DNA from: Escherichia coli
Lineage (GTDB): Bacteria > Pseudomonadota > Gammaproteobacteria > Enterobacterales > Enterobacteriaceae
DNA: 64,000 nucleotides
NCBI RefSeq assembly: GCF_044324785.1
Contig: NZ_CP172127.1
Direction: 5' to 3' (one strand)
Positions 1 through 10,960 of this stretch are shown here, one piece after another. The first letter of the stretch is position 1. Every line of letters begins with the position of its first letter. Position numbers and translations under genes: made by a program. The notes below the pieces were generated by a model, which made no database searches, was not told the DNA's origin, and was given only the letters and a program-made list of their open reading frames with translations.

Positions 1-272
1 AGTAAGAGGGAGAAAATTAACGGTCAGTCCGCACGCTATAACCAAATTGTTCAGCTAAGAAAGAAAACCAGAGATGCTAATCGAAGGGTGAACACAACGG
101 CATTGTTATGTTTATTTATATAGTTAGTTTTATAGCTAAAATTGAAATTATAAAAATAAATAATGAATTAGCAGGAGCATCAACAGTAATATCTTAATCT
201 CTGGTCGATTTATGTAAAACCGACCAGTATTATCGATAAATTATCGTCTGACTTATTTTGCTTCGATAAAGC

Positions 273-617
273 TTACACCGCAGCCACAATCTTAATTTCA
301 ACTTTATACTTCGGGTTCATCAAACCCGCTTGTACCGTGCAGCGCACCGGCGCATGACCCGCGACAACCCAGGCATCCCACGCTTTATTCATCGCCGCGA
401 AGTCGTTTTTATCGGCCAGGAAAATGGTGGCATCCAGAATGCTCGATTTATTGCTGCCCTGTTTTTCCAGCACGGCGTCAATCTGCGCCAGCGTGTTGGC
501 GGTTTGCTCAAAGGCATCGGCGTCGAGGTTTTCCGGTACACCAGTGTAGTAGAGCGTGTTGTTGTGGATTACTACATCAGACCAGCGGGCTTCAGCATCG
601 ATACGAACGATAGTCAT
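273..617 (-). CDS. yoaB: RidA/YjgF-family protein YoaB
   Basis: Track ORF 273..665 trimmed to the tandem ATG at 615-620; product begins MTIVRIDAEAR (114 aa). Confidence 0.85.
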   Translation of the reverse strand: MTIVRIDAEARWSDVVIHNNTLYYTGVPENLDADAFEQTANTLAQIDAVLEKQGSNKSSILDATIFLADKNDFAAMNKAWDAWVVAGHAPVRCTVQAGLMNPKYKVEIKIVAAV

Positions 618-724
618 CATTTTGTCCTCATTATACTTCCATTTTCGTGCTGCAAAGACTGCCACAATGTGAGGTCGCCGTCACCACTTCAACTGGCGAA
701 AGCGCCCTCATCCTGACATAATCC

Positions 725-740
725 CTGTTCAAATCAACAG
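725..740. promoter_or_regulatory. LexA box (SOS operator) upstream of yoaA
   Basis: CTGTTCAAATCAACAG fits CTGT-N8-ACAG; sits 9 bp before the yoaA GTG start in the yoaB-yoaA divergent region. Confidence 0.6.
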
Positions 741-748
741 GGGGTAGT

Positions 749-2659
749 GTGACGGACGATTTTGCACCAGACGGTCAGCTGGCGAAAGCGATACCAGGCT
801 TTAAGCCGCGAGAACCACAGCGACAGATGGCGGTAGCCGTCACCCAGGCGATAGAAAAAGGCCAGCCGCTGGTGGTGGAAGCAGGAACCGGTACGGGCAA
901 AACCTACGCTTACCTGGCCCCTGCGCTGCGGGCGAAAAAGAAAGTCATTATCTCGACCGGCTCAAAAGCGTTGCAGGATCAGCTCTACAGCCGCGATTTG
1001 CCAACAGTCTCAAAGGCGTTGAAATATACGGGCAACGTGGCGTTGCTGAAAGGGCGCTCAAACTACCTCTGCCTCGAACGTCTCGAACAGCAGGCGCTGG
1101 CGGGCGGCGATCTGCCGGTACAAATCTTAAGCGATGTGATCCTGCTGCGCTCCTGGTCTAATCAAACAGTCGATGGTGATATCAGCACCTGCGTCAGCGT
1201 GGCGGAAGATTCACAGGCGTGGCCGCTGGTCACCAGCACCAACGACAACTGTCTTGGCAGCGACTGCCCGATGTATAAAGATTGCTTTGTGGTCAAAGCA
1301 CGTAAAAAAGCGATGGACGCCGATGTGGTGGTGGTAAACCATCATCTCTTTCTGGCGGATATGGTGGTTAAAGAGAGTGGATTTGGCGAGTTGATCCCGG
1401 AAGCGGACGTCATGATCTTCGACGAAGCCCATCAGCTACCGGACATTGCCAGCCAGTATTTTGGTCAGTCACTCTCCAGTCGACAACTGCTCGACCTGGC
1501 AAAAGACATCACCATCGCCTACCGCACCGAATTAAAAGACACCCAGCAGTTACAAAAGTGCGCTGATCGTCTTGCCCAGAGTGCGCAGGATTTTCGTCTG
1601 CAACTCGGTGAGCCAGGTTATCGCGGTAACCTGCGTGAGCTGTTAGCTAATCCGCAAATTCAGCGGGCATTTTTACTGCTCGATGACACCCTGGAACTTT
1701 GTTATGACGTGGCGAAACTGTCACTGGGGCGTTCCGCCTTGCTGGATGCGGCATTTGAGCGCGCCACGTTGTATCGCACACGGCTGAAGCGGCTAAAAGA
1801 GATCAATCAGCCGGGCTACAGCTACTGGTACGAATGCACTTCGCGCCATTTTACTCTGGCTCTCACGCCGCTCAGCGTGGCGGATAAATTCAAAGAGTTA
1901 ATGGCGCAAAAGCCCGGTAGCTGGATCTTCACCTCAGCAACGCTGTCGGTGAACGACGATCTGCATCATTTCACCTCGCGGCTTGGGATAGAACAGGCGG
2001 AGTCGTTGCTATTGCCAAGCCCGTTTGATTACAGCCGCCAGGCGTTACTCTGTGTGCCGCGCAACCTGCCGCAAACCAATCAACCGGGCTCCGCACGGCA
2101 ACTGGCGGCAATGTTGCGACCGATCATCGAAGCTAACAACGGTCGTTGTTTTATGCTTTGTACCTCGCACGCCATGATGCGCGATCTGGCCGAGCAGTTC
2201 CGCGCTACCATGACGCTTCCCGTTTTGTTGCAGGGGGAAACCAGCAAAGGGCAACTGTTGCAGCAATTTGTCAGTGCCGGTAATGCGCTTCTTGTGGCAA
2301 CCAGTAGTTTCTGGGAAGGGGTGGACGTGCGTGGCGATACATTGTCATTGGTAATTATCGACAAATTGCCGTTTACCTCGCCGGATGATCCACTGTTAAA
2401 AGCGCGCATGGAAGATTGTCGTTTGCGCGGTGGCGACCCGTTCGATGAAGTACAACTGCCGGATGCGGTGATTACTCTCAAGCAGGGAGTAGGGCGACTG
2501 ATTCGCGACGCCGACGATCGCGGCGTGCTGGTGATTTGCGATAATCGGCTGGTGATGCGCCCTTACGGCGCGACGTTTCTCGCCAGTCTGCCGCCCGCGC
2601 CGCGCACCCGTGACATTGCCCGTGCGGTTCGCTTCCTTGCGATACCATCCTCCAGGTAA
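749..2659 (+). CDS. yoaA: DinG/XPD-family ATP-dependent helicase YoaA
   Basis: 636-aa ORF with GTG start; Walker A AGTGTGKT, DEAH-type box DEAHQL, Cys-rich Fe-S motif CLGSDCPMYKDC. Confidence 0.9.
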   Translation: MTDDFAPDGQLAKAIPGFKPREPQRQMAVAVTQAIEKGQPLVVEAGTGTGKTYAYLAPALRAKKKVIISTGSKALQDQLYSRDLPTVSKALKYTGNVALLKGRSNYLCLERLEQQALAGGDLPVQILSDVILLRSWSNQTVDGDISTCVSVAEDSQAWPLVTSTNDNCLGSDCPMYKDCFVVKARKKAMDADVVVVNHHLFLADMVVKESGFGELIPEADVMIFDEAHQLPDIASQYFGQSLSSRQLLDLAKDITIAYRTELKDTQQLQKCADRLAQSAQDFRLQLGEPGYRGNLRELLANPQIQRAFLLLDDTLELCYDVAKLSLGRSALLDAAFERATLYRTRLKRLKEINQPGYSYWYECTSRHFTLALTPLSVADKFKELMAQKPGSWIFTSATLSVNDDLHHFTSRLGIEQAESLLLPSPFDYSRQALLCVPRNLPQTNQPGSARQLAAMLRPIIEANNGRCFMLCTSHAMMRDLAEQFRATMTLPVLLQGETSKGQLLQQFVSAGNALLVATSSFWEGVDVRGDTLSLVIIDKLPFTSPDDPLLKARMEDCRLRGGDPFDEVQLPDAVITLKQGVGRLIRDADDRGVLVICDNRLVMRPYGATFLASLPPAPRTRDIARAVRFLAIPSSR

Positions 2660-2716
2660 TTTGTTACGGAGTATGGTATGATGCGCGCCTTTTTATTGAT
2701 CTAAGCACGAAGACCC

Positions 2717-3412
2717 ATGCGAATTCTGGCTATCGATACCGCGACAGAGGCCTGCTCTGTCGCTCTGTGGAACGACGGCACTGTCAACGCTCATTTTGAG
2801 CTTTGCCCTCGTGAACATACTCAACGAATTTTACCGATGGTGCAGGATATCCTGACCACCAGCGGAACTTCCCTGACTGACATTAACGCTCTGGCTTACG
2901 GGCGCGGCCCCGGTAGCTTTACTGGCGTGCGCATTGGTATTGGCATCGCGCAAGGGCTGGCACTTGGCGCAGAGCTGCCGATGATTGGCGTCTCCACGCT
3001 AATGACGATGGCGCAAGGGGCGTGGCGCAAAAACGGCGCAACACGCGTGCTGGCAGCCATTGACGCGCGAATGGGCGAAGTTTACTGGGCCGAATATCAG
3101 CGTGATGAAAACGGTATCTGGCACGGTGAAGAAACCGAAGCCGTACTCAAACCTGAACTCGTTCATGAACGGATGCAACAGCTTTCCGGGGAATGGGTGA
3201 CGGTAGGTACAGGCTGGCAAGCCTGGCCGGATCTCGGTAAAGAGAGCGGGCTGGTTTTGCGCTACGGAGAAGTTTTACTGCCAGCGGCGGAAGATATGCT
3301 GCCGATTGCTTGTCAGATGTTTGCCGAGGGTAAAACGGTGGCGGTGGAACATGCCGAACCGGTTTATTTACGTAACAACGTCGCATGGAAGAAACTTCCG
3401 GGCAAAGAATGA
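2717..3412 (+). CDS. tsaB: tRNA t6A37 threonylcarbamoyltransferase partner TsaB (YeaZ)
   Basis: 231-aa ORF; N-terminus [17 protein letters not shown] typical of the Kae1/TsaB/YeaZ family. Confidence 0.9.
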
Positions 3413-9349: not shown

Positions 9350-10960
9350 TCAGTTGTCGCCTTTGAATACGGTTCCCGCAGGGAGCACTGGTGTTTTTTC
9401 CAGGGCTTCAACCGGTGTCTGCGGGAGATAATGTTCAACTTGATGAGCCGGAATGTCGGCGTAATCCTGTTTCAGCCAGCGAATAAATCCGCCGACTTTC
9501 ACCAGTAAAATGACGAGGAAGGGAAGGGCTGTGAGCACGACGGTGGTTTTCATCGTTTCCAGCGAAGCACCGGTAAACAAGATGGAAAGCGGGATCAGAG
9601 TGATCACCACGCACCAGAAAAGACGCAGCCCACGGTCAGGATCTTCACCTTCCTGGAGATTACGCGTACTGGTCGCCGCCATGGTGTAGGCCACCGCATC
9701 CATATGCGAGGCAAGGAAAATAATCATCACGCCCAGGTATGCGGCGAGGAACAATTTACCGGCTGGCAACGACATCAGAACTTGCTGCACAGCTGTTTCA
9801 CCGCCCAGTGTTTCCAGCACCTGTGGGACGTTGATTACGCCATTGATAAACTGATGAATGGCATAGCTTTCCATTACGCCGAAGAAGAACCAGCAACCGA
9901 CGGTGCTGCCGAGGATCAGTCCCCAGATAACTTCTTTAATCTTATGACCGCGGGAAACGCGGGTGACAAACATTGCTACGCCAGGCGTGTATGAGATCCA
10001 CCACAGCCAGTAGAAAACGGTCCAGTTGCGGGTAAATGAACCATCGCCAAGCGGATCGGTGAATAAGCTCATTTGCAGGAAGTTTTGCGTGGTCAGGCCG
10101 ATGGCATTGATGATGCTGTTGGTAATAAATTCGGTTGGACCGACAATCAGCACCAGTAATGGCAGCAGGAACGCGCCCCAGCCAACCATTTTGCTCAGAC
10201 GTTGCAAACCGTTGTTGATACCAATCCATGAGCTTAGGCAAAAAATGCCGCCGGAAAGCAGGATCACAAATGCCTGCACGGTGAAGTTATCGGGTAAACC
10301 GGTCAGTGCGGAAAGTCCACGAGTAAAGGTTGCTGCGGTGACAACAAGGGAAATAGTCAGTGCGCCGACAGTGGCGATCAGGAACATCAAATCAACCAGT
10401 TTTCCCCATGGGCCTTGCGGGCGAACGCCGGTAATCGCGGCAATAATGCCGGAAAGACTCAGACCTTTGTTTTTCCGCACATGAAAGTGATAAGCCATGA
10501 TTAATGAGGCCAGCGTATAAGTTGCCCAGGCGCTGATGCCCCAGTGGAAGAAGGAGTAAGGGACGCTAAATTCGAGTGCCTGTTGTGAACGCGGTGCGAT
10601 ATTTAATCCAGGCGTTTGATAATAATAGGCCCATTCAGCAACCCCCCAATAAAGCGTAGAAGAACCTAAACCGGCACAAATAAACATAAACAGCCAGGAG
10701 AGCGTGCTGTATTCCGGTTTTCCTTCGCCAAGACGAATATTGCCGTATTTACTGGTGGCTAAATAAATCACCAGTCCCATTGCCAGCAAAACCAATACCT
10801 GTACGGCGGAACCTAACGTACGCGTAACAAAAGTGTATATTGCGTTGGCCGCGTCGGCCGATTGTTGTGGGAAAAGGCTTAATGCAGCTGCGATGAAAAG
10901 AATGGCCACCAGGCTGATGCTTATCAGCGGCACATCTTTTTTCTTAACATTGCTCATCAT
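9350..10960 (-). CDS. yeaV: BCCT-family (betaine/carnitine/choline) transporter YeaV
   Basis: Multi-TM ORF directly upstream of yeaW on the same strand; exact start uncertain (track ORF 536 aa may be N-terminally extended). Confidence 0.8.

Follow-up and report, generated by a model that had tools for sequence, protein, structure and literature searches.

A palindrome that ends a few nucleotides before the start codon of yoaA in Escherichia coli raises two questions: whether it is a LexA operator that places this gene in the SOS regulon, and which part of the region upstream of yoaA it acts on. The first has an answer in the literature. The box is the LexA operator of yoaA, already known and tested in 2021 (PMC8378479), and the membership of a helicase that links clamp-loader chi to the repair of blocked 3' ends in the SOS regulon, by way of a defined operator, is likewise already known. 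Here we add an extended -10 element that abuts the box, conservation of this arrangement across the Enterobacteriaceae, and a natural variant in which the CAG triplet of the operator is replaced by CCG.

Anatomy of the yoaA upstream region

The stretch of DNA analysed, hereafter the window, covers 64 kb of an E. coli chromosome. An earlier note made from these letters had reported the palindrome CTGT-N8-ACAG upstream of yoaA. It is present on the + strand as CTGTTCAAATCAACAG at positions 725-740, and its dyad runs at least 1 bp further on each side than had been described. The complete inverted repeat has two arms of six nucleotides, CCCTGT (723-728) and ACAGGG (737-742), and fills the 20-bp frame of a LexA operator, CCCTGTTCAAATCAACAGGG (723-742, no strand assigned). 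It thereby has the dyad expected of an SOS box, consisting of a 16-bp CTG-N10-CAG core (725-740) within a repeat that reaches CCCTGT/ACAGGG. We assign the element from its sequence, its heterology index, its conservation and a published mutation.

The gene downstream, yoaA, occupies positions 749-2659 of the + strand, begins with GTG and encodes a helicase of the DinG/XPD family with 636 amino acids, as identified from the list of open reading frames, the NCBIfam equivalog NF053712 and annotation in E. coli genomes. The product matches NF053712 ('DNA repair helicase YoaA') over its full length with 922.5 bits against a cut-off of 680, and the DinG models give scores under their own cut-offs. 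Its translation contains cysteines in NYLCLERL and NCLGSDCPMYKDC, among others, and the four Fe-S cysteines of DinG are conserved in YoaA (Brown et al. 2015). Eight bases (741-748) lie between CTGTTCAAATCAACAG and the GTG codon at 749; the distance of 9 bp given previously is the difference between the coordinates 749 and 740. A Shine-Dalgarno-like sequence read from the letters, AGGGGGT (739-745, + strand), likely serves yoaA. It overlaps the right edge of the box, with which it shares the last two nucleotides of the 16-mer and the last four of the 20-mer.

On the other side lies yoaB (273-617, - strand), a divergent neighbour annotated as a member of the RidA family and considered here as context. 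The gene order is yoaB (-), yoaA (+), tsaB, yeaY, fadD and rnd. Many E. coli genomes match a 301-bp probe around the box with 100% identity, and in them too it lies between yoaB and yoaA. About 105 bp separate the box from the start codon of yoaB, a gene that it probably does not control. In a ciprofloxacin time course yoaB was without induction, with a log2 fold change of 0.03 to -1.01 (PMC11002266).

Promoter architecture

We identified an extended -10 element, TGaCATAAT, at positions 714-722 of the + strand, with the TG at 714-715 and the hexamer CATAAT at 717-722. Its assignment to the yoaA promoter derives from conservation, and its function is putative. A candidate -35 element, TGGCGA (694-699, + strand), lies 17 bp from the -10 hexamer. 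It is weak, matching TTGACA at three of six positions. In the 75 unique upstream sequences from Enterobacteriaceae, its TGGC core is invariant or nearly so, with each column at 90% or more. A scan of positions 500-900 for consensus promoters and terminators returned no matches; it missed this promoter because it required at least four of six matches in the -35, which is poor here, and the promoter was accordingly assigned from conservation.

Transcription from sigma-70 promoters usually starts at a set distance from the -10, and by this distance the yoaA start is predicted at 728-731 of the + strand, 6-9 nucleotides past the hexamer of the -10, a position that falls within the LexA box. The 20-bp operator frame opens one base after the hexamer and spans the predicted +1. 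Our literature search found neither an experimental transcription start for yoaA nor a description of an extended -10 that abuts the LexA box in this promoter.

Strength of the motif

The bare pattern CTGT-N8-ACAG is not significant. It has one match in the 64-kb window where 0.64 are expected, and at least one match is found in 51 of 100 shuffles. The looser pattern CTG-N10-CAG has 29 matches in the window. Dinucleotide shuffles yield 12.6 +/- 4.0 matches of this kind and none reached 29. Most of the 29 matches are located inside genes, where CTG and CAG are common codons, so that the excess may be a matter of codon usage and not of LexA sites.

To grade the box we used a heterology index (HI) of the Lewis type, calculated from a matrix of 26 E. 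coli operators of published compilations; all values given are approximate. The customary HI limit for a LexA box is 15, and the 20-bp consensus is TACTG(TA)5CAGTA. With this approximate matrix the yoaA box has an HI of 11.7, which is inside the limit and in the weak range. It is the best of the 127,962 20-mers of the window and poorer than all 26 operators of the matrix. Three other 20-mers in the window have an HI of 13 or less, and by this matrix about one 20-mer as good as the yoaA box is expected by chance per 64 kb. The published HI of yoaA, reportedly going back to Courcelle et al. 2001, is 13, joint weakest with polB in Table 1 of PMC11228462. The significance of the box therefore comes from its position, its conservation and the published experiments, and not from the motif.

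The second-best LexA-like 20-mer of the window, CACTGGTGTTTTTTCCAGGG / CCCTGGAAAAAACACCAGTG at 9386-9405, has an HI of 12.3. Since it is located inside the yeaV coding region, we rejected it as a LexA site; it is probably a chance match.

Conservation across the Enterobacteriaceae

We compared yoaA loci from species-representative genomes, using the best 80 of 557 relatives. All of these are Enterobacteriaceae and they represent about 30 genera, including Escherichia, Citrobacter, Salmonella, Enterobacter, Kosakonia, Raoultella, Kluyvera, Atlantibacter, Siccibacter and others, as well as Klebsiella indica. The homologous proteins covered were those with at least 87% identity. Enough upstream sequence was available for 79 loci, which together with the window gave 80 rows and 75 unique sequences.

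The sequence CTGACATAAT followed by CTG-N10-CAG is found in all 79 usable loci among these best 80 of 557 relatives, so that both the triplets and their spacing are conserved in orthologous promoters, as is characteristic of an SOS box. The gap between CTGACATAAT and the box is two nucleotides, or three in two of the loci. All ten bases of CTGACATAAT are 100% invariant in the 80 rows, whereas the upstream flank averages 64% column identity, and the consensus of the extended -10 across loci is TGnCATAAT. Within the box, all six columns of CTG and CAG are invariant compared to one of the ten interior columns (Fisher p = 0.0009, 75 unique sequences). The ten interior columns have a mean identity of 0.66, about equal to the 0.64 of the upstream flank. 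The conserved anatomy of -10 and operator is the part of this account that comes from the present analysis.

The fourth position of the box is T or G in the left half and A or C in the right, and mixed forms of the type CTGT...CCAG are present. Both alternatives are known from LexA half-sites, for example those of ruvAB, cho and uvrB. Next to CTG, the interior of the orthologous boxes is rich in C and G, in contrast to the AT of the consensus. By the approximate matrix these boxes have HI values of 7.2-13.8 with a median of 11.2, and the box is weak in every genus among the best 80 of 557 relatives, in none of which it comes near the consensus. Judged from the aligned sequences, this conservation across genera independently supports LexA/SOS control of yoaA.

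The distance from the box to the matched start codon is variable, with gaps of 8, 12, 13, 23, 38 or 47 nucleotides, mostly 8 and 12. The larger gaps are probably due to tblastn matches that begin at a downstream codon. In loci of the Enterobacter type, 12 nucleotides separate the box from the start codon, GAGAGAG comes after the box, and the overlap with the Shine-Dalgarno sequence is lost. The fixed distance to the -10 together with the variable distance to the start codon indicates that the conserved partner of the box is the promoter and not the ribosome-binding site. The overlap with the ribosome-binding region to which the earlier note drew attention is literally there in the window (AGGGGGT, 739-745) but is probably incidental, and the overlap likely to matter for function is that with the putative promoter, namely the -10 and the predicted start site.

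One locus, in Escherichia coli strain SCPM-O-B-8794 (approximately 1360-1475 of locus L005), differs in its upstream sequence, which shows no relation to what lies between yoaB and yoaA in other Escherichia. Its neighbourhood appears rearranged or replaced, and the -10 (CTGACATAAT) and the operator are intact.

Published evidence for LexA control

According to later papers, Courcelle 2001 was the first to flag yoaA/yoaB as potentially LexA-regulated (PMC8378479). Sutera et al. 2021 (J Bacteriol 203:e00228-21, PMC8378479) fused the 132-bp yoaB-yoaA intergenic region to luxCDABE; the primers of this fusion map to positions 617-748 of the window. AZT induced the fusion, and a lexA3(Ind-) allele blocked most of the induction, the early phase especially. 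Changing CTG(N)10CAG at 'position -24', where N10 is TTCAAATCAA, to CCC(N)10GGG resulted in high constitutive expression with no further rise on AZT (PMC8378479). This work establishes that control in vivo depends on LexA and that the CTG and CAG triplets are needed. Two of the checks suggested in the earlier note, a reporter in a lexA(Ind-) background and induction by an agent that damages DNA or blocks replication, had therefore already been published, with the predicted outcome. The constitutive mutant and the block by lexA3, with which the conservation described above agrees, bear out the proposal that yoaA is under SOS control by LexA through this box. In the searchable literature we came across no EMSA, footprint or ChIP evidence that LexA binds the yoaA box directly.

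The text of PMC8378479 describes changes to the two triplets only, while 10 bases differ in the mutagenic primer, in which each 5-mer is reversed: CCCTG has become GTCCC, and CAGGG has become GGGAC. By the approximate 26-operator matrix, the HI of the mutant box is 32. An inverted repeat is still present in the mutant. The changes also fall in the discriminator, in the initially transcribed region and in the Shine-Dalgarno region, so that some of the high basal expression could stem from a changed promoter and not from lost repression.

Genome-wide data agree that yoaA is inducible by DNA damage, in line with the reports to which the earlier note referred. An RNA-seq study from 2024 places yoaA among the classic SOS genes, with 4.0-fold induction by AZT, a lexA dependence of 1.6-fold and an sspA dependence of 1.2-fold (PMC11228462). 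In the ciprofloxacin time course, induction of yoaA was rapid and small, with a maximum log2 fold change of 0.68 (PMC11002266). Unlike most SOS genes, yoaA fell after 50 min, which led to the suggestion of additional regulation (PMC11002266). The measured effects are modest, both for lexA3 dependence and for ciprofloxacin. A 2025 review treats LexA control of yoaA as established.

In the fusion experiments, lexA3 still allowed a slow induction in late growth. It reached about 30% of the wild-type level at 180 min, 6-fold above that of untreated cells, and the box mutant lacked this slow phase (PMC8378479). The late induction in lexA3 is unexplained by simple LexA cleavage.

Comparison with known LexA operators

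The yoaA box of E. coli K-12 (MG1655 1,893,244-1,893,259) is the same site as that in the window and identical in sequence, with the same N10, a CTG located 24 nucleotides before GTG and the same 132-bp intergenic region. It shares the 16-bp CTG-N10-CAG palindrome, which at yoaA lies in the putative promoter, with the canonical gammaproteobacterial SOS box TACTG(TA)5CAGTA found at umuDC, recA and sulA, for example. A LexA dimer reads the canonical palindrome and RecA-stimulated self-cleavage relieves repression, as is very probable for yoaA too. In contrast to the canonical box, the yoaA flanks are CC/GG rather than TA/TA, and TTCAAATCAA agrees with the alternating TA pattern at few positions. 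These mismatches in flanks and interior lead us to predict low affinity and leaky repression.

A similar case is dinG, where a weak non-consensus LexA operator likewise precedes a gene for an Fe-S helicase of the DinG/XPD family. The dinG operator is asymmetric, with TTG for CTG in one half, whereas the yoaA box retains both CTG and CAG and departs from the (TA)5 consensus in its interior. The LexA box of dinG was reportedly described by Lewis and Mount in 1992. Published HI values are 8.6 for dinG and 13 for yoaA, and the corresponding inductions by AZT, both modest, are 3.2-fold and 4.0-fold (PMC11228462, Table 1).

Proposed mechanism

We consider it very probable that positions 723-742 form a functional low-affinity LexA operator that confers SOS repression by promoter occlusion, relieved when RecA stimulates LexA self-cleavage. 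In this scheme we infer the promoter elements, the point at which transcription starts and the step of steric occlusion. In an undamaged cell, a LexA dimer bound to the operator would cover roughly -7 to +13 and would block either binding of RNA polymerase or formation of the open complex, keeping yoaA low. Because the site is weak, repression would be incomplete. Single-stranded DNA at stalled forks would then activate RecA and bring about self-cleavage of LexA, leaving the operator empty and yoaA transcribed. The YoaA helicase acts with HolC (chi) in the tolerance of chain-terminated 3' ends.

Alternative explanations

The alternative that survives best retains the LexA operator and adds a second control that is independent of LexA cleavage, such as a growth-phase or nutritional signal. 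Although we think this rather unlikely, several observations point in its direction. These are the slow phase of induction that persists in lexA3 and is lost in the box mutant (PMC8378479), a lexA dependence of 1.6-fold for a 4-fold induction (PMC11228462), the drop of yoaA after 50 min (PMC11002266), and an operator that is weak (HI 7.2-13.8, approximate matrix) in every genus of the best 80 of 557 relatives. However, we found no further conserved motif in the 75 unique sequences besides the -10, the box and the partly conserved -35, and sspA dependence amounts to 1.2-fold (PMC11228462). Moreover, the box mutant is already maximal, so its missing late phase may represent saturation, and the late phase itself may be an artefact of the plasmid reporter.

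A second alternative is a translational or structural control that does not involve LexA, in which the palindrome would fold, as RNA or DNA, into a hairpin in the yoaA leader and mask the Shine-Dalgarno sequence. The 6+6 repeat can form an 8-bp stem that includes the G-rich Shine-Dalgarno region, with a minimum free energy of -14.8 kcal/mol for positions 715-775, and the fourth position of the arms mostly covaries, being T-A in 11 box types and G-C in 7. However, this fold is no better than those of shuffled sequences (z = -0.60, with 55 of 200 shuffles equal or better), and in 5 of the 23 box types a mixed T..C or G..A combination would break the pair. A start about 7 nucleotides past the -10 would also place the left arm outside the mRNA. 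In addition, the published mutant keeps a 5+5 inverted repeat and is nonetheless constitutive, and the luxCDABE reporter, the induction of which was mostly blocked by lexA3, is presumably translated from its own ribosome-binding sites (PMC8378479). An Rfam scan of positions 1-3000 at E <= 1 gave no matches. We rejected the hairpin, which is very improbable, on the grounds of the shuffles, the mixed box types, the lack of an Rfam match and the mutant that retains the palindrome.

Finally, a chance match of CTGT-N8-ACAG with no regulatory role would fit the 0.64 matches expected per 64 kb, the 51% of shuffles with at least one, the marginal HI and the three other 20-mers in the window at HI 13 or less, but is scarcely credible given that CTG and CAG are invariant at a fixed distance from an invariant -10 in about 30 genera (best 80 of 557 relatives) while the interior and flanks drift, and given the operator mutation and lexA3 data (PMC8378479).

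Natural variation in the operator

Of 5426 complete E. coli genomes, 5274 carry an exact match to the 30-mer that spans the -10 and the box. In 127 of the 5426 we identified a variant, CTGTTCAAATCAACCG, in which CAG is changed to CCG (A to C at position 739 of the window; position 190 of locus L082). The variant marks a sub-lineage of E. coli. It disrupts one of the triplets, without exception conserved in about 30 other genera (best 80 of 557 relatives), and raises the HI from 11.7 to 15.7 by the approximate matrix. Based on these sequence comparisons, we predict that LexA represses yoaA less strongly in the carriers. We found no paper in the searchable literature that links yoaA regulation with this variant.

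With 723-742 taken as a low-affinity LexA operator, the weakness of the site might itself be of use. We suggest, tentatively, that selection, rather than drift toward or away from the consensus, keeps the affinity low, that yoaA may thereby respond when LexA falls only slightly or when a signal independent of cleavage arrives, and that the CCG lineage is partly constitutive for yoaA. If this were true, the rise seen late in growth in lexA3 would be a candidate for an effect of such a cleavage-independent signal. YoaA made in excess competes with HolD for HolC. Because of this competition, strains with the CCG variant could have an altered balance between replication and repair, or an altered tolerance of chain-terminating nucleosides. 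The variant could also serve as a ready-made test of repression by a weak LexA box.

Carriers of the variant include SE15 and two records titled O25b:H4-ST131. We rejected it as a marker of all ST131, since the box of EC958 is wild-type.
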